From positions 3,600,001 to 3,632,000 of the forward strand of contig NZ_CP042905.2 of assembly GCF_008000775.2 (NCBI RefSeq): 32,000 bases of DNA. The letters are read 5' to 3'. A program made the translations under genes and the position numbers. Under the pieces are notes generated by a model. The model did no database searches. It saw only the letters and a program-made list of their open reading frames with translations, and had not been told where the DNA came from. Positions 2,101 through 32,000 of this stretch are shown here, one piece after another. Each line of letters begins with the position of its first letter. Position 1 is the first letter of the stretch. Source of the stretch: Promethearchaeum syntrophicum. Lineage in GTDB: Archaea > Asgardarchaeota > Lokiarchaeia > Sigyniarchaeales > Promethearchaeaceae.

Positions 2101-3369
2101 TTATTCTTCAGCTGACGAGTTCTTTTTGTCGAGGTTCAATTTTTTGTAATTGAACGATAGAAACGGAATGAGAATAGCAAAGGTTGCTAATCCTAACATG
2201 AGCATCGTTGATAATAATGAATTTAATCCAAATATCCCTAAATGATCTAAACTATACCCTATCAACAATGCCATCCCCATATAGACCATATTCAATAAAA
2301 AGTTGATTATGGATAAGACTGTAGCGCGCCGATCCGAAGGGATATGATCATTTGCGTATTTATCGAGAATAGTCCAAGTATAATCTCGCGTGAAGAATAA
2401 GATAAAAAGGAAACCTAAACTAATATATTGAGTGATAATTACCATTAAGAAGAACATTACTCCAAAAATCACTGTGATCCCATAAAACGAGCCTTTTTCA
2501 CCAAATTTCTTCTCAATTTTATAGCGTAAAGGGGCGAAAAATCCAATCACTCCACGTGTAAAAGCAAATATGATCCCGAAATAAATAACCGGAATATTGA
2601 TTTCTACTAAGTATAATTGCTCCATTAAATTAACGAATAACATTGGAATCGTTAAGACTAATACCCAAAATATGGTAATAAATCGTACTATCTTATTTTT
2701 CCATACAAATCCTAAAGATTTGACAATTAGTTTGTATTGAGCGGCAATAGTTTTCGAACTTTCGGAAGGAATTGGTTCTTTCATGGTGAACACAATTGCA
2801 CTCGCAACAATCAAGGCAATTCCATGAGCGTAGAACGGTAATGTAATATGAATAGTATATAAAACGGACCCCAAAATTGCTGAAAGGATTAGCGCTACTG
2901 CAGTTATCACTTCTCTTTTTCCGGTGTATTTCAGATAGTCTTGTTCTTTATTCATTTGTTTTAAGGAATCATAAAATAATGCATTAACAGCCCCTGAAAT
3001 AAAAGAATCTCCAAATCCCATTAATATCATAGTAATTACAAACCCATTGAATGTAGAAAATACACCCATAAGGACCAAACTTAATCCCCATAAAAACATC
3101 CCTAACCCCGTAGAAAGCTTTCTACCAAAGATATCTGCAAATGCGCCACTCGGAATATCACTCAGAAATACGATTCCCGAGACTATGGCTTCTAATACAC
3201 CCATTTCAAAAAAATTTAAACCTCGTTCTTGGAAATAGATGATGCCGACAGGCATGGAGATCCATAAATTCCGGAAAAACATCGCGATGAAATATTTCGT
3301 TATGTTTTTTTCCATGGGATGTTTATTCATTTTTATACTCGTGCTAACAATTTCATCTGTATTGGTCAT
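2101..3369 (-). CDS. MFS-type transporter
   Basis: 422 aa with about 12 hydrophobic segments. A motif-A-like loop GAFADIFGRKLS follows the second TM segment. Confidence 0.75.
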   Translation of the reverse strand: MTNTDEIVSTSIKMNKHPMEKNITKYFIAMFFRNLWISMPVGIIYFQERGLNFFEMGVLEAIVSGIVFLSDIPSGAFADIFGRKLSTGLGMFLWGLSLVLMGVFSTFNGFVITMILMGFGDSFISGAVNALFYDSLKQMNKEQDYLKYTGKREVITAVALILSAILGSVLYTIHITLPFYAHGIALIVASAIVFTMKEPIPSESSKTIAAQYKLIVKSLGFVWKNKIVRFITIFWVLVLTIPMLFVNLMEQLYLVEINIPVIYFGIIFAFTRGVIGFFAPLRYKIEKKFGEKGSFYGITVIFGVMFFLMVIITQYISLGFLFILFFTRDYTWTILDKYANDHIPSDRRATVLSIINFLLNMVYMGMALLIGYSLDHLGIFGLNSLLSTMLMLGLATFAILIPFLSFNYKKLNLDKKNSSAEE

Positions 3370-15213: not shown

Positions 15214-16131
15214 TCATTTCATTATGTTGGATTCAAGAATAGAAAAATATAAATCAATAATTCCTTTCCATTCATTTTCTGTTAATTCCCGTACTTCTAA
15301 ACCATTCTTCGGTACATAGGTAACGATGATCATCGATGGCTTATATTGTACATAAGGTTTGAATTCTAACTCGATATCCACTTCTTTATTATATTTCTTC
15401 TTGGACAGGTGTCCATTTTTTATCCATGTATCTAATTCCAGTCCAACTCCTCCAAAAGAAGTTGCACAAATGAGTTTTATTTCCATAGCAGGGTATTTTG
15501 CGGGATTAACTAGGATATTGGTAGGTCCCATTTGAATCATGCTTTCCCTTTCGGTTATTGTTATCTCTATTCTAATTTTTTCGGGATCATAGTATTTCTT
15601 TATTAATTCTGCAGTAAGGATCGTTTGTTCGATGTTATGAATAAATATGGTTCCAATTTTTCGTTTTTCTGGCTCTTTTTCATAGAAAGTAATATATCCG
15701 ATCCCTATTTCCCCTAGACAATAAAGGATGGAAATGAGAATGATATGGATTTGAAAAACATTATTAATCACTAATACTAATGGAACTACCAATATCGCAA
15801 TTCCTCCAAGAAAAATTAGCACCAGATTGAAAATTATTTTAAATTTTTTCGGTTTTTCATGATATTCAATAGATGGATATTGATTATACAAATCAATAAA
15901 TTCCTCTAGAGTAATTATCAGTTTGCGCTGATGAGGACTGAAGATTTTTATTGGAATGCCCAAACTCATTCCCATCGCAACTAAAATACCAAAATTCATG
16001 AATCCACCAAAATATTCCCCAAAGAAATACAACAGTATCGGACCAATTGTTATGATAATCAATCCACTTATCACAATTTGAATGGTCTTTTGCTTTCCAT
16101 TCCATGGTTGAAACTTGTTTTCAATTGACAT
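15214..16131 (-). CDS. Hypothetical membrane protein (4 TM segments plus ~150-aa C-terminal soluble domain)
   Basis: 305-aa ATG ORF with clear hydrophobic segments (IQIVISGLIIITIGPILLYFF, FNLVLIFLGGIAILVVPLVLVI and others). No recognised domain. Confidence 0.55.
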   Translation of the reverse strand: MSIENKFQPWNGKQKTIQIVISGLIIITIGPILLYFFGEYFGGFMNFGILVAMGMSLGIPIKIFSPHQRKLIITLEEFIDLYNQYPSIEYHEKPKKFKIIFNLVLIFLGGIAILVVPLVLVINNVFQIHIILISILYCLGEIGIGYITFYEKEPEKRKIGTIFIHNIEQTILTAELIKKYYDPEKIRIEITITERESMIQMGPTNILVNPAKYPAMEIKLICATSFGGVGLELDTWIKNGHLSKKKYNKEVDIELEFKPYVQYKPSMIIVTYVPKNGLEVRELTENEWKGIIDLYFSILESNIMK

Positions 16132-16705: not shown

Positions 16706-17254
16706 CTATTTAACATGGTTGAAAGCACTTTTAATGCTGTTCAGGTTAAAAATCGATGTATCAAATATCTTGATGGACTTCTTATGCCCTTGGATGAAGG
16801 ATTCAACCTTGTCAAGGAACATTTGTTTGAGGTTTTTTTTGGTCGGATCAAAATTTGGATCGGTTTTATTAAACAGGATATTGATTTCTGCATCAGGGCT
16901 ATTTCTTACAATTATTGGAAGCACTGTCATGAAGTACATGATGGAATTAAATAACCGATAATAATCTTGAACATCGATAACATAAAATGCAAATGAGATA
17001 GAGCGAAGATAGGTTTCAGGATCAGCTAAGTATTCATTACGATAGACTTCTTGCCCTCCAAAATCCCAAACTACAAGATTTCTCTCGGAGATGACACTTC
17101 TCTCAATATTCTTGGTAGGCGACATATCAGGAGGGGTAAGTTGGTTAAATCTAATTTTATCCGTGAGAACATCAACAATAGTGGTTTTTCCCGCATTTTC
17201 CAAGCCCATAAGAATAACTTTTATTAAATCTTCTCGATTCATTTCGTTGCTCAT
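16706..17254 (-). CDS. Arf-family-like small GTPase
   Basis: G1 GLENAGKTT, G2-region SPTKNIE, G3 WDFGGQ (the Arf/G-alpha type WDxGGQ), G4 NKTD. 182 aa. Confidence 0.85.
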   Translation of the reverse strand: MSNEMNREDLIKVILMGLENAGKTTIVDVLTDKIRFNQLTPPDMSPTKNIERSVISERNLVVWDFGGQEVYRNEYLADPETYLRSISFAFYVIDVQDYYRLFNSIMYFMTVLPIIVRNSPDAEINILFNKTDPNFDPTKKNLKQMFLDKVESFIQGHKKSIKIFDTSIFNLNSIKSAFNHVK

Positions 17255-17378: not shown

Positions 17379-17807
17379 ATGAAGAACACACATTGCTCAT
17401 ACGATTCATCACGTGCTGGTGAATCAGAACGCTTAAGTTTAGCTCGAAAAGAAATGAAAGACGCCTGGATTGGATTAATCATTGTTAGTATAGTTATGGC
17501 AGCATTATTCCATTCAGCCTGGTGGTCATTGATCCCGCGGGTCGTATTATTTATTCATGCAATTGATAAAACAGCAAAATACTCCCGAATTAAAGATGCA
17601 GATAGAAGATTGAAGGCACAAGAATCAAGGCAAAGACAATACGGAACTCCTACTGAAACTTCGTATTACGGGAAACCGGAACAACCTACAATTATTACCT
17701 CACCTTCTAAGGCAACCTCCGGCTTTTGCCCATTATGTGGACAAAAACATGAAAGAGACGCAGTCTTTTGTTCGGCTTGCGGAACTGATTTGAGACAAGG
17801 GGCTTAA
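17379..17807 (+). CDS. Membrane protein with C-terminal zinc-ribbon
   Basis: Two hydrophobic segments (AWIGLIIVSIVMAALF, WWSLIPRVVLFIHAI) and C-terminal CPLCG-x11-CSACG. Confidence 0.55.
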   Translation: MKNTHCSYDSSRAGESERLSLARKEMKDAWIGLIIVSIVMAALFHSAWWSLIPRVVLFIHAIDKTAKYSRIKDADRRLKAQESRQRQYGTPTETSYYGKPEQPTIITSPSKATSGFCPLCGQKHERDAVFCSACGTDLRQGA

Positions 17808-18528: not shown

Positions 18529-18915
18529 ATGGAATTAACACCGTTGCATCACCAAAAATTAGAACGATATATTGATCAACTTCAAGATGATCCGAATATT
18601 TTGGCAATGGTAGTATATGGAAGTGCAACTAAATCTAATAAATATAATGATATTGATATTGCATTAATTGCATTTCCTGAAAAAATTCCATACATTGATG
18701 AACTTAAATATATGTTAGGAACTAATGAAGAATTTGATATTCATTTTCTTCATAAATTGCCGGTTTACATTCAAAAAGATGCTATTAAAGGGAAACTTAA
18801 ATTCTATAAAGATTATCAAATAATTTTTAACGTTTTTATTAATATCATAAGAGAATGGGATGATTTTCATAAAAGGTATGGTTTATTTCTGGAAGTGATA
18901 CGAGATGGCTTATGA
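18529..18915 (+). CDS. mntA: Minimal nucleotidyltransferase antitoxin (MntA-type)
   Basis: VVYGSATKSNKYNDIDIAL (GS-x9-11-DxD polymerase-beta-type NTase motif). Overlaps the downstream HEPN gene by 11 nt. Confidence 0.8.
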   Translation: MELTPLHHQKLERYIDQLQDDPNILAMVVYGSATKSNKYNDIDIALIAFPEKIPYIDELKYMLGTNEEFDIHFLHKLPVYIQKDAIKGKLKFYKDYQIIFNVFINIIREWDDFHKRYGLFLEVIRDGL

Positions 18916-19303
18916 GAGAATAATAAATCGAATTGCATTTATTAAAACAAATTTATCTTTGCTAAAAAAATTGATTCCTTCAAATATTGAGTTGTATATT
19001 AATAATCAGACTATTCAACTGGCAATTGAACGTCTATTACAGATTATAATTGAAGCAATAATGGATATATGTATTCAACTTGTAGGATACTTAAATTTAG
19101 GAATTCCGAAGTCAGAAACTAATATATTAGACCTTCTTGAAAAAAAAATACCTTCCGTTAATAAACTTCGGGAATTAAAAAAATTTAGAAACGTACTCGT
19201 GCACCAATATGTTAGAATTGAACCTCAAAAGATATTTGCCCATGCTTCTAAATTTCCAGATGATTTGAAAATAATTTTGCATGAAATCAATAAACTAATT
19301 TAG
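18905..19303 (+). CDS. hepT: HEPN/DUF86 RNase toxin (HepT-type)
   Basis: 132 aa. Rx4H motif in FRNVLVHQY near the C-terminus. Paired with the upstream MNT gene. Confidence 0.8.
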   Translation: MAYERIINRIAFIKTNLSLLKKLIPSNIELYINNQTIQLAIERLLQIIIEAIMDICIQLVGYLNLGIPKSETNILDLLEKKIPSVNKLRELKKFRNVLVHQYVRIEPQKIFAHASKFPDDLKIILHEINKLI

Positions 19304-25450: not shown

Positions 25451-26518
25451 ATGGATGAAAATAAAACTCTTTCAAATTTAATTTCCAGAATAAAAAATGA
25501 TCCGACAATACTGGAAACCCATGAATCAATCATTTTAGAAAATGAAATGCGTTTAAAAGAGGATATTAGTTCATTAGACCAATTTTATGAGGCGATTGTT
25601 GATGGATATTACCTTATCGGGCGACGTTCTAAATGTGTTGAATTCACTAAACGTTGGTTATCAATTCATAAAGATCTGTCGCAGAATACAAGAGGAATTG
25701 CAATAGCAAATCATACTATGGGAATAATTTGTCAAGTTTATAAGCATAATCTTCAAAAAGCCGAAGAATATTACAAAAAAGCCTATGATATCACCAAAAA
25801 TAACCCAGATTTAGGTCTTCGAGACATGATGATTTATAATATGGCTAATATCTACCAACATTATAAAGGGGATTATCTAATCGCTTACCCCTATTATAAA
25901 GAAGGGGCAGAAAATGCCCATAAACAAAATAATCCCATTAGAGAAGCCTTTTTCGTGGATCATATGGCAATGAGTATGCATTGGCAGGAAAAATATGATG
26001 AAGCTCTAAAATTATTATACCAATCTCGAAAAATTGTTGCTCATGAAGCACGAGGTGATCACACACTTTATAATAGAATGTTGGAATCCTTAATTTTTCT
26101 TGAATTACATCAATTTTCCAAAGCGTTACAAGGAATGTTGAGTGTTATTGACATTAAAATCATGAATAAAGACGGTTTTACTCACAACGATTATTTGTTA
26201 TGTTTATCTGATATTGCACGAGAATTACCGGCAGAATTTGAGAAATATCAAGAGAAATTAAAACCTATATTAGAAGATAGTTTTACAGAAGAAGAAATTA
26301 TTGATAAAGCGGTTGCATTTGCAGAAACTAATGGAAGAGCAGATATCGTAGGAAAATCATGCTTATATAAAGCCAAATGGTTATGGAAAAATGAACAACA
26401 TGAGGATGCTAAGAAATTACTCAAAAAAGGTTGGAAAATTATTCACGAAGATTATCGAGGTGAAATAGTTCAATTATACAATAAATTTATAAACCAAAAT
26501 CAGATAATTTTAGATTAG
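25451..26518 (+). CDS. TPR-like helical repeat protein
   Basis: 355 aa, all-helical with repeated A..Y...A pattern units (AEEYYKKAYDITKNN, MANIYQHYKGDYLIAYPYYKEGAENA, EKYDEALKLLYQS). Confidence 0.6.
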   Translation: MDENKTLSNLISRIKNDPTILETHESIILENEMRLKEDISSLDQFYEAIVDGYYLIGRRSKCVEFTKRWLSIHKDLSQNTRGIAIANHTMGIICQVYKHNLQKAEEYYKKAYDITKNNPDLGLRDMMIYNMANIYQHYKGDYLIAYPYYKEGAENAHKQNNPIREAFFVDHMAMSMHWQEKYDEALKLLYQSRKIVAHEARGDHTLYNRMLESLIFLELHQFSKALQGMLSVIDIKIMNKDGFTHNDYLLCLSDIARELPAEFEKYQEKLKPILEDSFTEEEIIDKAVAFAETNGRADIVGKSCLYKAKWLWKNEQHEDAKKLLKKGWKIIHEDYRGEIVQLYNKFINQNQIILD

Positions 26519-26563: not shown

Positions 26564-26989
26564 TTAAACTCGTGTGTTTTTGATTTCATAACCACAATGA
26601 CTACAAAAATAAACGGACAAATTTTCTATATTTCTATCTATCTCACTTCCACATTGTAGACAGTATTTCTGATTTCTTCGTATTGTGGTTGGTTTTGGTT
26701 CTGAAGGAGATTGTGCCCTTCTTTGTACGTAATGTTGTGTTCTCCCCCTAGATCGAGCCCTAGAAGCCGAAGAAATTGCCCCTATCACACTTATCATAAT
26801 TATTACCAAATATATCATAGGAAAACTAAAAACACTCGACCTACCAATGAAGAAGAATATTCCGAGAAAGAATAATATACTCGTTATAGAAGATATAATC
26901 AAAAAATTTCTTTGCCTTGGTTGAGAATTTCCATCATTTTCATTTTCTTCCTGATTTTGGGAAGCTATAATCGGTGTCATCCATGCCAT
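26564..26989 (-). CDS. Membrane protein with C-terminal zinc-ribbon; its N-terminal peptide is shared with the 509-aa paralogues
   Basis: MAWMTPIIASQNQEENEN..., two TM segments, C-terminal CLQCG-x16-CSHCG. Confidence 0.6.
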   Translation of the reverse strand: MAWMTPIIASQNQEENENDGNSQPRQRNFLIISSITSILFFLGIFFFIGRSSVFSFPMIYLVIIMISVIGAISSASRARSRGRTQHYVQRRAQSPSEPKPTTIRRNQKYCLQCGSEIDRNIENLSVYFCSHCGYEIKNTRV

Positions 26990-27047
26990 TATAATTTAAA
27001 TAAGCGAATTTAGGAATAAAAAAAAAATCCATAATATTCTAGTACTA

Positions 27048-27077
27048 CCATATGCAACCATATGAAAGGTCCATATT
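27048..27077. promoter_or_regulatory. CCATATG repeat array upstream of the 26989 gene
   Basis: CCATATG at 27048 and 27058 (10-bp spacing), and CCATATT at 27071. Lies 59-88 nt upstream of the minus-strand ATG. Confidence 0.45.
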
Positions 27078-27117
27078 AAAAATTAAATAAGAATTCAAAT
27101 GAACTTAAGTGATAACG

Positions 27118-27795
27118 ATGAACTTAGGATTTGTAAGATTTAAAAGGAAAAAATACAGGGTAAAACGTGCTAATGATTTTATTACCGGTAAAAAGAGTAG
27201 ATTTCTAACAATAACTAATAAAAAAATCGAAGATATTTCTGAAATCGAAGGTTTAGATAAATTAACCGAACTCCAAGTGTTAAATTTAAGTAATAATAAC
27301 ATTTCCGAAATTCGTGGGCTGGATTCATTGATAAATTTGCATTCACTGATACTAGATGATAACTCTATTCATCAATTAAAAGGATTAGAACATAATTACA
27401 AGCTAAAATATTTATCCATCAATAAGAATAAATTAAGGGAAATTACTGGTCTTGAAAATCTAACCCAATTGCTTTATTTACAATTAATGGACAATGAAAT
27501 TTCAGCGATCTCAGGGTTAGAGACTTTGATTAATTTACAGGAATTATATTTGCGTAAAAATCATATTTCTAAAATCAGAGGCTTAGAAAAAGTAAGGTCA
27601 CTCAAAAAATTAAATTTAGAGAAAAATCAAATTCAAGATCTTGAGGGATTAGAGAATTTGGAAAATCTATTTTGGATTTTTTTGGGAAAAAATCCGGTTT
27701 TTAAAGAAGTAAAGAAGATTAGTAGAACATTTTTGGGATATGCTAAATATCCCCAACGACTTGTGAAATACTGTAAAGACAATCTTCAAAATTGA
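27118..27795 (+). CDS. Leucine-rich repeat protein, seven 22-aa SDS22-like repeats
   Basis: Regular L..L..L.L..N.I..I.GLe.L units: LTELQVLNLSNNNISEIRGLDS, LINLHSLILDDNSIHQLKGLEH, ... LRSLKKLNLEKNQIQDLEGLEN. The track start 27109 is GTG; ATG 27118 is used. Confidence 0.85.
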   Translation: MNLGFVRFKRKKYRVKRANDFITGKKSRFLTITNKKIEDISEIEGLDKLTELQVLNLSNNNISEIRGLDSLINLHSLILDDNSIHQLKGLEHNYKLKYLSINKNKLREITGLENLTQLLYLQLMDNEISAISGLETLINLQELYLRKNHISKIRGLEKVRSLKKLNLEKNQIQDLEGLENLENLFWIFLGKNPVFKEVKKISRTFLGYAKYPQRLVKYCKDNLQN

Positions 27796-28045
27796 AACTG
27801 AGAATAATTGAAAGATCCCATAATTCTTTGGGATTTTCTTTACTACTTTCTTCCAGAACTCACAATATTTCTTTTTCGAAATTCATGTTCACTAATTTCA
27901 CCTTAGTGGAAATAAAATCTATCAAAATCCGAACGATTTTAAATCCCATAAAATCCACGAGAATACACATATTCTTATTCATAAATGAGAGTATATCCTT
28001 GAATCAACCATATATTATCAAAATATAAGCCAAAAGTGAAAAAAT

Positions 28046-28096
28046 AACCGATATATTCTCGGTTAGTGGTCATCTGAACCTAAATGTTGATGACCA
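28046..28096 (-). terminator. Conserved double hairpin plus T-run downstream of membrane-protein paralogue A
   Basis: AACCGA (28046-51) / TCGGTT (28059-64) and TGGTCATC (28067-74) / GATGACCA (28089-96). On the minus strand these are followed by TTATTTTTTCACTTTT. Confidence 0.45.
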
Positions 28097-28132
28097 TAAC
28101 ATTGGGTTGATTACTTTTATTTGAAAAAAATA

Positions 28133-29662
28133 TTATTCTTCGACTAAATTTTTCTTTTTGTTTCTATATTCTCTAAACCACGGAATTGCTAATGTGATGG
28201 ATGTCAAGATCCCCATAAAAACAAGATAAAATTGTTGAAATAGTATGTATTTATTAAATTCACCAAAATACATATCTGGGATATTTTCATAAGTCCAATT
28301 GCTCAGTACTCTAATTAATATATTTGGAATGAATACAAATACATTTAGAAGCAGTGCTCCCAAATAAATATTTTTCTTGAATTTGTGTTCTATGAAAAGC
28401 AATCCGAAATTAATGATTCCAAGTATTATTATTGAGATCGTATAAAATGACCACCCATACATCCAAGACGGAATAATTCCAATTAACTCAATAAAATATA
28501 TCATTTTGAGATAATTGTCATCGTTACTCAGTTCTTCTTTTAAATTACTTGAATTTATGAACAATTGAATCAAAGCCATAACTTGGAACATAATAAACAC
28601 TATCCCACTAAAACTAAAAAGGATAGTAAGTTCTGCCCACCTGAAAGGAAAATAAAAAACAAAATCAGATATAGCAAATAAGCTTCCCGAAATAAATATT
28701 CCATAGAGAATTAATGGTAAATTAATTTTAATTTTGGATGCATTTCTATATTTTACAACGATGACACCAATCACTGCACTTAATATGGTAATAATTAGAA
28801 ATTGTGTGATAAAACTATAACCAACAAAAACGGACACAAAATTTCCTACAGTAAAATAGAAAGTGAAGAATAAAAGATTCAATTGATCTTTTTTAGATCC
28901 CGAAAGAAGGGAAACTCCAATTCCCAAACAACTGACTATGAATATCACCAAAAATAAAGCTTGAGGACTTTCTACAATTTTTGTCCCGAGATCAGTTTCT
29001 CTCCAATAAGTAAAAGAGAGGATTCCCAGAAAACAAAGATATTGAATACCAAATAAAATTACATTTTTACCTTTCTCTTGATCACGGGGTTTAAGGGACA
29101 GCCAAATAGAAATTATTGCAATAATGATGCTAATTGATAACAGAACATAAAAAATAATTTCGAAGGTATGATTGTATCCCCAAAGAATTCCTACAAGATG
29201 TGAAGTGAAAATTAGAATGATATCCAGAATTATTATTAGGATAGAAAAAATCATTGAAAACTTAATCTCCTTTCCAGCAACCGAGATGCGATATAAACTT
29301 GGTTCGGAGGATTTTTCACTTGTATCTTCCGCATTCATTCCTGATTTAATTTGAATATTTTTTTGTTCCTTTTTATTTATTCCAATGAGAAACACTATAA
29401 GAATTAAAATCAGGGTGACTGCCATTATAAAAGGAATAAAATCAGCTTGGAAAAAATCAGAGAAAAAATTTGAAATTATTCCCGAAATTGAATCAATTCC
29501 CATTGTACTTCCTAAATTATTCAATTTTACTGTAAGGTATGCAAAAAAAACATAGGGAATAAATATCATCAATAAAAATTGTAAATTTTTCTTAAATTGG
29601 ATTCTATTTTTTCCTTTTTCTTCCTGAGTTTGGGAAGCCAGTATGGGTGCTTTCGACGCCAT
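28133..29662 (-). CDS. Polytopic membrane protein of unknown function, paralogue A (~509 aa, at least 12 TM segments)
   Basis: Long hydrophobic ORF. The track start 29686 is TTG. ATG 29662 (MASKAPILASQTQEE...) is conserved in paralogue B and in the 26989 gene. Confidence 0.75.
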   Translation of the reverse strand: MASKAPILASQTQEEKGKNRIQFKKNLQFLLMIFIPYVFFAYLTVKLNNLGSTMGIDSISGIISNFFSDFFQADFIPFIMAVTLILILIVFLIGINKKEQKNIQIKSGMNAEDTSEKSSEPSLYRISVAGKEIKFSMIFSILIIILDIILIFTSHLVGILWGYNHTFEIIFYVLLSISIIIAIISIWLSLKPRDQEKGKNVILFGIQYLCFLGILSFTYWRETDLGTKIVESPQALFLVIFIVSCLGIGVSLLSGSKKDQLNLLFFTFYFTVGNFVSVFVGYSFITQFLIITILSAVIGVIVVKYRNASKIKINLPLILYGIFISGSLFAISDFVFYFPFRWAELTILFSFSGIVFIMFQVMALIQLFINSSNLKEELSNDDNYLKMIYFIELIGIIPSWMYGWSFYTISIIILGIINFGLLFIEHKFKKNIYLGALLLNVFVFIPNILIRVLSNWTYENIPDMYFGEFNKYILFQQFYLVFMGILTSITLAIPWFREYRNKKKNLVEE

Positions 29663-29706
29663 AAATGTATTAAATGAAAACGACAATATAGTTAGATCCC
29701 TTTATA

Positions 29707-29743
29707 TTCATATGACACCATATGATACCATATGATGCCTTAT
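29707..29743. promoter_or_regulatory. Four 10-bp-phased CATATGA-type palindromic repeats upstream of paralogue A
   Basis: CATATGA at 29707, 29717 and 29727, and CTTATGA at 29737. Lies 45-81 nt upstream of ATG 29662, just distal to a TATA-like AATATAAA. Confidence 0.5.
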
Positions 29744-29863
29744 GATTTTTCATTGATTTTTTCAATTTTATTTTTATGAAATTCCTTCTTGGTTTTTTCT
29801 GCTAAATGGGGGGAGAATAAATGGTAAAGCTATCCAATAGAATGGAATAAGACACAGTTCAAC
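29738..29863 (-). pseudogene. Fragment of the MFS gene 3' end (duplication junction, left side)
   Basis: About 85% identical to 31701..31823, with a 1-nt indel in the G-run (gggggg versus ggggg). Confidence 0.7.
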
Positions 29864-29936
29864 AAGCAAAGAAGATTAGCAGAATCTTCATGGGATTTCC
29901 TAAATATCCTTAAAGACTTGTGAAATATTGTAGAAC
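29864..29936 (+). pseudogene. Fragment of the LRR gene 3' end (duplication junction, right side)
   Basis: aagcaaagaagattagcagaatcttcatgggatttcctaaatatccttaaagacttgtgaaatattgtag aligns with 27707..27779 of the LRR gene. It contains an in-frame stop. Confidence 0.65.
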
Positions 29937-30008
29937 CAAAGCACATTATGAATGAATGTGGTTAAATCAACAAGAAATTATCATCCCATAAGCAAAAAGT
30001 GAAAAAAA

Positions 30009-30058
30009 ACCGAGTTATTCTCGGTCAGTGGTCATCTGGACCTCAAAGCAGATGATCA
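30009..30058 (-). terminator. Conserved double hairpin downstream of membrane-protein paralogue B
   Basis: ACCGAG (30009-14) / CTCGGT (30020-25) and TGGTCATCTG (30029-38) / CAGATGATCA (30049-58, one G-U pair). Confidence 0.45.
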
Positions 30059-30096
30059 TAGCATCGGGTTAATTACTTCTATCTGTAAAAAAAATA

Positions 30097-31623
30097 TTAT
30101 TCTTCGACTAGATTTTTCTTTTTGTTTCTATATTCTTTAAACCACGGAATTGCTAATGTGATGGATGTCAAAATCCCCATAATAACAATATAAAATGGTT
30201 GATATTCTACGTATTCGTATCCACTAAGGTCACTTTCATAGATCCAATTGCTCAATAATATAATTAATATATTTGTAATGAATACAATTAAATTAAGAAG
30301 CAACGCTCCCAAATTAATATTTTTCTTGAATTTATGTTCCGTGAAAAGTAATCCGAAATTAAGGATTCCGAGTATTATTATTGAGATCGTATAAATTGAC
30401 CACCCTTCCATCCAAGACGGAAAAATTCCAATTAACTCAATAAAATATAACATTTTAAGATAATTGTCATCGTTACTCAGTTCTTCTTTTAAATTACTTG
30501 AATTTATGAACAATTGAATCAAAGCCATAGCTTGGAACACAATAAACACAATCCCAATAAAAATAAAATGGATGGTAAGTTCTGCACTCCTGAAAGAACT
30601 TCCTAAAATAAATTCATAGATAGCAAAAGAGCTTCCCGAAATAATTAATCCATAGAGAATTAGCGGTAAATTAATTTTAATTTTGGAATTATTTTTATAC
30701 TTAATAACAATGAAACCAATCACTGCACTTAATATGCTAAAAATTAGAAATTGTTTAATATACAGTAAACCGGCATTATATCCAAAAACGGACACAAAAT
30801 TTCCTACTGTAAAATAGAAACTGAAGAATAAAATATTCAATTGATCTTTCTTAGATCCCGAAAGAAGGGAAACTCCAATTCCCAGACAACTGACTACAAA
30901 TATCACCAAAAATAATAATTGAGGACTTTCTACTATTTTTATTCCATTACCGAAACCAGTTTCACTCCAATAAGTTAAAGAGAGAATTACCAGAAAACAA
31001 AGATATTGAATTCCAAATAAAATTAAATTTTTACCTTTCTCTTGCTCACGGGGTTTAAGAGAGAGCCAAATAGAAATTATTGCAATAATGATGCTAATTG
31101 ATAGCAGAATATAAAAAATAATTTCGGAAGTTTGATTATATCCCCAAAGAATTCCTACAAGATGTGCAGTGAACATTAGAATGATATCCAGAATCAATAT
31201 TATTATAGAAAAAATCAGCGAAAACTTAATCTCCTTTCCAGCAACCGAGATGCGATATAAAATTGGTTCGGCGGATTTTTCACTTGTTTCTTCCGCCTTC
31301 ATTCCCGATTTAAATTGATTTTTTTTATGTTCCTTTTTACTTATTACAATGATAAACGCTATAAGAATTAAAATCATGGTGACTGCAATTATATAAGGAA
31401 GGAAATCAGCTTGGAAAATATCAGAGAAAAATCTTGAAATAATTTCCCAAAATGAATCAACTCCCAGTCTATATCCTATATATTTCAATTTTAATGAGAA
31501 GTATGCTAGAAAAACATAGGGAATAAATATCATCAAAAAAATGTGTAAATTGTTCTTAAATTGAATTTTTGTTTCATTTTCTTCCGAAGTGTGGGAAGCC
31601 AGTATGGGTGCTTTCGACGCCAT
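30097..31623 (-). CDS. Polytopic membrane protein of unknown function, paralogue B (~508 aa)
   Basis: Roughly 80% aa identity by eye to paralogue A. ATG 31623 (MASKAPILASHTSEE...) is preferred over the TTG at 31647. Confidence 0.75.
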   Translation of the reverse strand: MASKAPILASHTSEENETKIQFKNNLHIFLMIFIPYVFLAYFSLKLKYIGYRLGVDSFWEIISRFFSDIFQADFLPYIIAVTMILILIAFIIVISKKEHKKNQFKSGMKAEETSEKSAEPILYRISVAGKEIKFSLIFSIIILILDIILMFTAHLVGILWGYNQTSEIIFYILLSISIIIAIISIWLSLKPREQEKGKNLILFGIQYLCFLVILSLTYWSETGFGNGIKIVESPQLLFLVIFVVSCLGIGVSLLSGSKKDQLNILFFSFYFTVGNFVSVFGYNAGLLYIKQFLIFSILSAVIGFIVIKYKNNSKIKINLPLILYGLIISGSSFAIYEFILGSSFRSAELTIHFIFIGIVFIVFQAMALIQLFINSSNLKEELSNDDNYLKMLYFIELIGIFPSWMEGWSIYTISIIILGILNFGLLFTEHKFKKNINLGALLLNLIVFITNILIILLSNWIYESDLSGYEYVEYQPFYIVIMGILTSITLAIPWFKEYRNKKKNLVEE

Positions 31624-31669
31624 AAATGTGATAAACGAAAACGACAATATAGTTAGATCCCTTCATATT

Positions 31670-31706
31670 CATATGATACCATATGTCACCATATGATGCC
31701 TTATGA
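31670..31706. promoter_or_regulatory. Four 10-bp-phased CATATG-type repeats upstream of paralogue B
   Basis: CATATGA at 31670, CATATGT at 31680, CATATGA at 31690, CTTATGA at 31700. The last repeat contains the MFS stop codon (31701-31703). Confidence 0.5.
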
Positions 31707-32000
31707 TTTTTCATTTGTTTTTTCTATTTTATCATTATGAAGTTCTTTCTTGGTTTTTTCTGCTAAATGGGGGAGAATAAAGGTTACAGCAATCCAATAG
31801 AAAGGGATTAGACATAACTCAACATATATAGAAATCAGGAAGGGTGCTGTGGGATCAATTTTATCCCATGCTAAGCCGCCAAAAAGAGGTCCAGCAATAT
31901 TACCAATATTAATGAATAATTTTTGAAGACCAAAGATTTTTCCTCTATTATTTATAGAAATCCTGCTAAGTAGATTTTGCACTGAGAGCCCAGCAACGGA
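31701..32000 (-). CDS. MFS-type transporter, C-terminal part (gene continues beyond the window end)
   Basis: The open frame runs to the window edge. GLQKLFINIGNIAGPLFGGLAW resembles the MFS TM11-12 region. Partial. Confidence 0.6.
   Translation of the reverse strand, partial: SVAGLSVQNLLSRISINNRGKIFGLQKLFINIGNIAGPLFGGLAWDKIDPTAPFLISIYVELCLIPFYWIAVTFILPHLAEKTKKELHNDKIEKTNEKS

Follow-up and report, generated by a model that had tools for sequence, protein, structure and literature searches.

Three genes in a 32,000-nucleotide window of the genome of Promethearchaeum syntrophicum MK-D1, a cultured Asgard archaeon of the Lokiarchaeia, share a 5' module in which a phased array of CATATG boxes is followed by a conserved N-terminal peptide. 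The window (the whole stretch of DNA analysed, G+C ~31-33%) encodes a 141-aa zinc-ribbon membrane protein, here called g141, and two paralogous multi-pass membrane proteins of 509 and 508 aa, g509a and g509b, which are 100% identical to DSAG12_03871 and DSAG12_03872. We propose that the module, comprising ~85 bp of promoter and the first 15-17 codons, ancestrally formed the 5' end of g141, a family specific to Promethearchaeum, that it became fused to a g509 gene, and that the fused gene was then duplicated in tandem. We assign the whole of this account, with the readings of the boxes and of the peptide given below, a probability of roughly 60%. The features concerned are the following.

26564..26989, minus strand: g141, 141 aa, with a predicted disordered N-terminal tail, two transmembrane (TM) helices, a basic linker and a C-terminal zinc ribbon.
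26942..26989, minus strand: first 16 codons of g141, MAWMTPIIASQNQEEN, encoding the conserved N-terminal peptide of the family.
27014..27026, minus strand: TTTTTTTTTTATT, the probable TATA-like element of g141, which aligns with CCATATATATTT in relatives and lies ~25 nt before the ATG.
27048..27077, minus strand: boxes upstream of g141, CATATGG at -65 (27048-27054) and -75 (27058-27064), with an AATATGG out of phase at -88 (27071-27077).
27701..29873: copy 1 of the tandem duplication, in which g509a and the module lie between an LRR 3' end and a fragment of an MFS 3' end (29780-29873).
28133..29662, minus strand: g509a (DSAG12_03871), 509-aa multi-pass membrane protein.
29612..29662, minus strand: grafted start of g509a, MASKAPILASQTQEEKG, with the fusion junction in a GAA-rich run at ~29612-29620.
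29684..29695, minus strand: probable TATA-like element of g509a, CTAACTATATTG, at -33 to -22.
29709..29745, minus strand: g509a array of four 10-bp units (TCATAAGGCA, TCATATGGTA, TCATATGGTG and TCATATG), with CATATG starting at -52, -62 and -72 and CATAAG at -82.
29858..31833: copy 2 of the tandem duplication, in which g509b and the module lie between an LRR 3' end fragment (29858-29939) and the 3' end of the MFS gene.
30097..31623, minus strand: g509b (DSAG12_03872), 508 aa.
31573..31623, minus strand: grafted start of g509b, MASKAPILASHTSEENE.
31670..31706, minus strand: g509b array of four 10-bp units, with CATATG at 31670, 31680 and 31690 and CTTATG at 31700.
31701..32000, minus strand: MFS transporter gene, 3' end only, the rest lying beyond the window.

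The fusion can be read from g509 homologues outside the P. syntrophicum genome. These start MEKEKKIQFKKN and have neither the array nor the peptide. The DNA upstream of them is of two kinds, either an ordinary promoter free of boxes (loci L001 and L004) or a decayed g141 with boxes (L002 and L006). In an alignment across the start, three unrelated upstream classes converge exactly at the g509 ATG, beyond which the coding DNA is near-identical. The join in g509a and g509b reads ...CAG GAA / GAA AAA GG... and falls within a GAA-rich run common to both partners. The locus therefore has the characters of a 5' gene fusion or promoter capture, namely homologues without the extension, a discrete junction at the start of the recipient, and a donor family in which the segment is native. 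Apart from an upstream in-frame TTG, neither g509a nor g509b has an alternative start codon before TM1, so that the grafted peptide must be translated. The N-terminal peptide has moved onto an unrelated protein family, as the sequence-only reading of this DNA had suggested.

In both L002 (1870-2099) and L006 (1-181) the decayed g141 stands directly before the g509 homologue. Its boxes are kept, its peptide-coding part is internally deleted and the gene is truncated after TM1; co-transcription with g509 is possible. The string MISKA in the remnant open reading frame (ORF) of L002 was considered as an "SK" subfamily akin to the MASKA of g509, and was dropped because the match is a frameshifted piece of g141. 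Also dropped was the idea that inversion of the L001/L004 promoter gave rise to ACTATATTGTCGTTTT of g509a, since the alignment with TATATTTTTGTTTT of L030 is colinear.

The two copies of the duplicated segment lie head to tail with a period of ~1,960 bp and an identity of ~90-92%, and fragments of the MFS and LRR genes are left at their junction (29780-29939), as in a tandem duplication. The two long arrays are consequently not independent, being copies from one ~1.96-kb event. A third paralogue in the genome, g509c (DSAG12_02472), starts MASKTPIMASRNQEE and is only 59% identical to g509a overall. Searches of g509 against Pfam, NCBIfam and PDB profiles found no relative, with only a sub-threshold MFS_1 match on g509b.

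Comparison of the modules points to a donor. The module of the g509 genes is 72% identical to that of L030 and 69% to that of L033, both of which are linked to an MFS gene, and 63% identical to that of the g141 in the window. Across the relatives, an MFS gene and a g141-type module behind it recur as a conserved pair, and g509b lies directly behind the MFS gene in the same way as the g141 homologues of L008, L030, L032 and L033. Because the closest modules are MFS-linked and g509b occupies the position behind MFS, the donor was probably an MFS-linked g141 paralogue. An older copy of the same duplication, which the sequence-only reading had set against its own proposal, does not explain the resemblance of g141 to the g509 genes, given 72% identity to L030 versus 63% to the g141 of the window. 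In the mechanism that we propose, the module of the MFS-linked g141 lineage would have been joined in frame at the start codon of g509 itself, within the P. syntrophicum lineage, through GAA-rich microhomology (CAG GAA GAA AA / ATG GAA AAA GAA AA). The fused gene would then have been copied by the 1.96-kb tandem duplication to give g509a and g509b.

That the peptide is native to g141 follows from its distribution. A search with the 141-aa protein returned 20 clusters, all from Promethearchaeum-type assemblies and all starting MAWxAPIIASQNQEEN. Besides the zinc ribbon, the N-terminus is the most conserved stretch of these clusters, with M1, P6, I7, A9, S10, Q11, Q13 and E14 each at least 90% conserved. 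A profile search of 1.84 billion representative proteins gave only two strong 50%-identity cluster representatives (E < 1e-30), together with weak relatives of the same architecture. At least one of the latter is annotated as Promethearchaeota, and several start MAW[MI]xP[IV][IV]A. Since these distant relatives share that start, the hydrophobic first half of the peptide would be much older than its acidic QNQEEN half. Proteins P0040, P0046, P0047, P0052, P0054 and P0057 are of this sort: distant Promethearchaeota members with two TM helices, a zinc ribbon and the MAW[MI]xP[IV][IV]A start. A query with a 40-aa peptide profile returned only a g509 fragment at E = 9.6 and was uninformative.

The zinc ribbon of g141 scores 25.2 bits against Zn_Ribbon_1, for which the cut-off is 25. 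An AlphaFold2 model of the protein has low confidence (pLDDT, a per-residue confidence score, of 59.5) and serves here for topology and disorder only. The N-terminal tail (residues 1-21) has a pLDDT of ~42 and is predicted to be disordered; residues 22-49 and 56-77 form a TM hairpin in the model, and a small ribbon follows after a basic linker that is likewise disordered. Given two TM helices and a basic linker on the C-terminal side, the positive-inside rule would place the tail and the C-terminal end alike in the cytoplasm. Basic residues flank both TM helices, so the tail should lie in the cytoplasm and is not expected to act as a secretion signal. Nor did we find the characters of a Sec, Tat or class III secretion or sorting signal at the N-terminus, where an acidic stretch is followed by basic residues ahead of TM1. 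The peptide is thus predicted to be a conserved, disordered cytoplasmic N-terminal tail that forms a short linear motif.

Another small protein gene in the window (17379-17807, plus strand) encodes 142 aa unrelated to g141 but apparently similar in architecture, with a zinc ribbon at the C-terminus besides hydrophobic stretches. In L007 (19969-20397) and L008 (11432-11860), 142-aa Zn_Ribbon_1 genes resembling it were called.

The codons support selection on the protein. Pro6 is encoded by CCG, CCA and CCT across the g141 family and by CCC in g509a and g509b, and residue 8 varies among I, M, L and F; the varied Pro6 codons indicate that the peptide is under protein-level selection. The three peptides listed in the sequence-only reading, MAWMTPIIASQNQEE, MASKAPILASQTQEE and MASKAPILASHTSEE, are as it gave them, all beginning MA..PI.AS...EE, and the remainder of the g141 protein is indeed unrelated to g509a and g509b. 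Where it estimated ~75-80% identity over the first ~50 coding nt, we find 78% between g141 and g509a and 71% between g141 and g509b over 45 nt, and 76% and 75%, respectively, over 51 nt. Its further suggestion of a leader-peptide-like element finds no support, as the peptide belongs natively to the zinc-ribbon family, whose conserved N-terminus it forms, has varying Pro6 codons, and provides the sole start of g509a and g509b. In L008 (1538-2415), two tandem g141 paralogues lie 5 bp apart and both have the peptide, with boxes before the first only. The peptide can therefore occur without an array inside an operon.

The other half of the module is the phased array. CATATG occurs 13 times in the window, and eight of these occurrences fall inside the three upstream regions (27049 and 27059; 29709, 29719 and 29729; 31670, 31680 and 31690). 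The pattern CATATG-N4-CATATG, with up to two mismatches allowed, has seven matches, all within the same three regions, where 1.86 are expected; none of 100 shuffles reached seven. The phased arrays upstream of the three genes are therefore real, as the sequence-only reading held, although its description of four CATATGA-type repeats at 10-bp spacing needs adjustment. Each long array has three perfect CATATG units, and the fourth (29739 and 31700) reads CTTATG. Its coordinates were right for g509b but 2 nt too low for g509a, where the first CATATG is at 29709 and not 29707, and its boxes upstream of g141 (CCATATG at 27048 and 27058, CCATATT at 27071) were correct. The MFS stop codon (31701-31703) falls within the fourth unit of g509b, CTTATG at 31700. 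The g141 boxes lie in a region (27048-27118) between g141 and a divergent gene for an LRR protein, which probably starts with the ATG at 27118 and has a TATA-like element at 27080-27091; the boxes could serve both promoters.

We compared ten independent g141-type upstream regions, those of the g141 in the window, L007, L008, L029-L034 and one g509 copy, the relatives being from metagenomes or metagenome-assembled genomes. Box 1, [A/C]ATA[T/A]GG, is at -75 and box 2, CATATGG, at -65 in 8 of 9 g141 promoters, with variants at -71/-61 and -73/-63. A third box at -55 (CTAATG, TCTATG or TATATG) is weaker than these two. Downstream follow an invariant GG at about -41, an AT-rich element resembling CCATATATATTT at -33 to -23, and AATTATA abutting the ATG. 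Information content across the ten promoters is highest at the boxes, at the GG and at the TATA-like element, and drops to almost nothing in the stretches that separate them. The box unit CATATG (CCATATGG in some members) is palindromic, and unit spacing is exactly 10 bp. A single perfect CATATGG with degenerate boxes on either side is the family norm, and the long array of three to four units is specific to the g509 copies. The g509a and g509b units, at -82, -72, -62 and -52, extend one 10-bp unit beyond the closest g141 promoter, that of L030, and the extra units look like a slippage-type expansion of the site.

Such conservation at fixed positions in ten promoters fits a binding site for a dimeric regulator. 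Judged from sequence, the phased boxes are most likely a putative site at which dimers of a transcription factor would sit side by side on one face of the helix. The earlier suggestion of a dimeric regulator thus stands as a fit to the data. No regulator gene next to the module is conserved in the neighbour gene lists of the relatives, and neither an Lrp-type nor any other regulator gene is linked to the locus, with no gene of the ribbon-helix-helix (RHH) type nearby. The literature, searched for the locus tags and for an archaeal CATATG operator, yielded nothing of relevance.

The position of the core promoter may explain why promoter and start codon travelled together. In the window, clear promoters (for example those of 15214-16131, 16706-17254, 25451-26518 and 2101-3369) have a TATA-like octamer that ends ~22 nt before the ATG. 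Among 44 genes from the window, L007 and L008, the best TATA-like 8-mer most commonly starts at -40 to -31, a pattern that fits frequent leaderless or near-leaderless mRNAs in these genomes. Genes with a TATA-like element that begins some 29-40 nt ahead of the ATG make up the largest class in the window and in relatives. In the module itself, an AT-rich element is found at -33 to -23 in 8 of 10 members. The sequence-only reading had taken AATATAAA as TATA-like. This octamer is present in g509a at 29701-29708 (-46 to -39), where its g509b counterpart reads AATATGAA, but it is a less likely TATA box than the AT-rich element ~22 nt before the ATG. With a TATA-like element ~22-25 nt before the ATG, the module transcript is probably leaderless or has a very short leader, so that promoter and start codon would travel as one unit. 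Capture of a leaderless promoter necessarily brings its ATG, and the additional 15-17 codons would reflect the site of microhomology. With a transcription start on or close to the ATG, the boxes would occupy about -50 to -80 and stand upstream of BRE/TATA, which is the position of an archaeal activator. In archaea, activators bind upstream of the BRE/TATA region (PMC2995911).

Several observations weigh against the account as a whole. First, the upstream boxes may be placed otherwise than for activation. L032 and L034 are not TATA-like at about -33 and are instead AT-rich near -50; the core promoter may thus be further upstream in some or all members, and boxes abutting BRE/TATA would then be in a repressor-type position. 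Second, the gene-body tree places the module-less P0002 with g509a and g509b, next to g509b, and groups g509c, which has the peptide, with the module-less P0008. Because presence of the module and the gene-body tree are discordant, 5' ends and gene bodies differ in history. A single fusion is not sufficient, and recombination, gene conversion or repeated loss must be added. This discordance also lends limited support to the earlier description of the 5' element as shuffled. Third, codons 7-16 (ATT xxx GCT TCC CAA AxT CAG GAA GAA AAT) are nearly invariant at synonymous sites, whereas the codons of the zinc ribbon vary although its residues are equally conserved.

A tract of ~50 nt just after the g509 start, ATTCAATTTAAGAAAAATTTACAAATTTTTTTGATGATATTTATTCCC (window 29553-29611), is near-identical in paralogues whose proteins are ~59% identical. 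It is found in relatives at L001:1392-1470, L002:2100-2178, L004:856-935 and L006:182-260, and is likely a gene-conversion or recombination tract. L001 and L004 have one common upstream class despite having distant proteins.

The near-frozen codons suggest a constraint at the nucleotide level, which might plausibly come from an RNA element early in the coding part of a leaderless mRNA or from a site downstream at which a protein binds. Within codons 9-15 lies an inverted repeat, CTTCC-N8-GGAAG (minus strand; 26947-26964, 29620-29637 and 31581-31598), whose preservation depends on two rare codons, TCC, with a 16% share of Ser codons, and CAG, with a 12% share of Gln codons. It is conceivable, though in our view unlikely, that the first codons serve mainly as a hairpin in a leaderless mRNA or as a downstream operator, with the peptide as a by-product. 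Speaking for this are the near-absence of synonymous change in codons 7-16, rare TCC and CAG included, where zinc-ribbon codons are free to vary, and the behaviour of codon 13, in which the amino acid changes (Q, S or R) while the third-position G is constant. The predicted hairpin, however, has only 5 bp; RNAalifold gave a consensus energy of -4.8 kcal/mol with 0 compensatory pairs, and the structure is broken in L033 and weakened in L034. No Rfam family matched at E<=1. With neither covariation nor an Rfam match, the element does not have the characters of a structured cis-regulatory RNA, leader peptide or attenuator. In addition, the M-A-W-x-x-P-I part of the peptide shows synonymous drift under amino-acid conservation and is kept in very distant relatives, and the second paralogue of the L008 operon has TCT and GAT at the position of the repeat.

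The sequence-only reading had suggested a small regulon. Put as a full model, unrelated genes would independently have gained a phased CATATG operator and a portable N-terminal tag because one regulator and one tag-recognising system govern them jointly. The array is conserved and fixed in position. The residues P, I, A, S, E and E are retained in all three g509 paralogues even though g509c is so diverged from g509a, and g509 has twice come to lie behind a g141-type promoter (by the fusion, and behind the decayed g141 in L002 and L006), which suggests a useful pairing. The searches for further arrays and peptides that the same reading had proposed argue in another direction. They were run on 99.7 kb of Promethearchaeum-type DNA and on species-representative genomes, and yielded further g141-family cases but no array elsewhere. 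In the 99.7 kb, all strong matches to a 20-nt position weight matrix are in g141-type modules, the next two matches (L034:432 and L031:831) are inside a coding region, and the array is absent before non-homologous 5' regions. A six-frame regular-expression search for the peptide found it only on g141-family genes and on g509a and g509b. Among 185,579 species-representative genomes, the peptide-coding DNA pattern occurred in one Promethearchaeum contig, on two tandem g141 paralogues, and in 18 bacterial stretches that we take as chance; the P. syntrophicum genome, absent or masked in that set, is not among the matches. A metagenome scan returned only 3 loci. Array and peptide always move together as one homologous block, no array stands outside g141-type starts in ~100 kb, only one other Asgard contig among the species representatives carries the peptide-coding pattern, and only two protein families carry the peptide. 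Independent acquisition under a common regulator appears improbable to us, and the proposed small regulon is not supported by the ~100 kb of Promethearchaeum-type DNA: the three genes share one module by common descent.

That the arrays have no regulatory role, being 10-bp minisatellite-like tandem repeats or a side effect of how the upstream gene ends, is very unlikely: unit number does vary (2-3 in most promoters, 4 in g509a and g509b), and the stop codon of the upstream gene is often inside the distal box (the MFS stop is in box 1 or box 4 in L008, L030, L032, L033 and g509b), but in boxes 1 and 2 both the sequence and the spacing to the ATG are preserved where proteins are only 45-75% identical and the flanking intergenic DNA has diverged, and the boxes stay with g141 whether MFS or TPK is upstream, TPK having replaced MFS in L031 and L034.

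Elsewhere in the window, the product of a gene at 16706-17254 (minus strand) is a Gtr1/RagA/Arf-type small GTPase (Pfam E = 3.5e-23), one of the eukaryote-like signature proteins that are usual in Asgard genomes. Two overlapping ORFs of 128 and 132 aa lie at 18529-19303 (plus strand). Syntenic genes of these sizes in L007 are annotated as a Polbeta nucleotidyltransferase and a HepT-like protein, a pair of the toxin-antitoxin type.

To our knowledge, gene regulation in Asgard archaea is almost uncharacterised, and only a few strains, P. syntrophicum among them, have been cultured. The footprinted upstream element AATATGGTAYCATATGG, at -75/-65 of a probably leaderless start, offers bait for a first specific regulator of the lineage. 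A leaderless promoter can be captured only with its start codon, and the recipient is left with a foreign N-terminal tail, a consideration that is useful for the annotation of start codons and for the reading of "shared N-terminal motifs" in archaeal genomes. A much more speculative possibility, which we hold to be rather remote, is that MA(W)xxPIxAS..EE is a portable cytoplasmic recognition motif (e.g. for sorting, turnover or assembly) with an Asgard-specific partner, delivered together with a dedicated promoter in which the phased CATATGG boxes bind a new type of archaeal regulator. On that supposition g141 and g509 would belong to one circuit that controls membrane proteins, and the frozen codons would add a second control at the RNA or DNA level.

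The locus adds a case to kinds already known, namely operator arrays, the capture of a promoter by fusion and segmental duplication, and does not by itself constitute a new mechanism. Sites of Lrp-family regulators (Ptr2, LysM, Ss-LrpB) are ~13-15 bp long, with centres two or three helical turns apart (PMC2995911). Like these upstream sites, the boxes are imperfect palindromes clustered just upstream of BRE/TATA on one face of the helix, and there are extra sites upstream of the core site, which in the Lrp family are bound by cooperative dimers. Unlike Lrp sites, the CATATG units are 6-8-bp palindromes exactly one turn apart, and the array is therefore not a cluster of the Lrp type. RHH repressors (MetJ with its met-boxes, and omega, CopG and Arc) bind 2-5 abutting short boxes, palindromic or repeated, as touching dimers, in numbers that vary between promoters. 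The period is 8 bp for MetJ and 7 bp for omega, and RHH arrays usually overlap the core promoter and repress. The arrays of short palindromes one turn apart described here would be closer to RHH tandem boxes than to Lrp sites, although their 10-bp period differs. The sign of regulation, activation or repression, would depend on where the core promoter lies.

With respect to the proteins, the C-terminal CxxC...CxxC ribbon of g141 resembles that of DZR/Zn_Ribbon_1 small membrane proteins (PF13240, PF12773), whereas its MAW...PIIA motif, two-TM core and basic linker are specific to Promethearchaeota. We know of no characterised member of the g141-type small membrane zinc-ribbon proteins. The fusion resembles promoter capture by in-frame deletion or illegitimate recombination, in that the gene's own start gives way to a promoter, a start codon and first codons of foreign origin, and the junction lies in microhomology. 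As in such captures, homologues without the extension exist. It differs from ordinary promoter capture in that the donor promoter is probably leaderless and inseparable from its ATG, and in that the grafted tail is a conserved motif kept in three paralogues.

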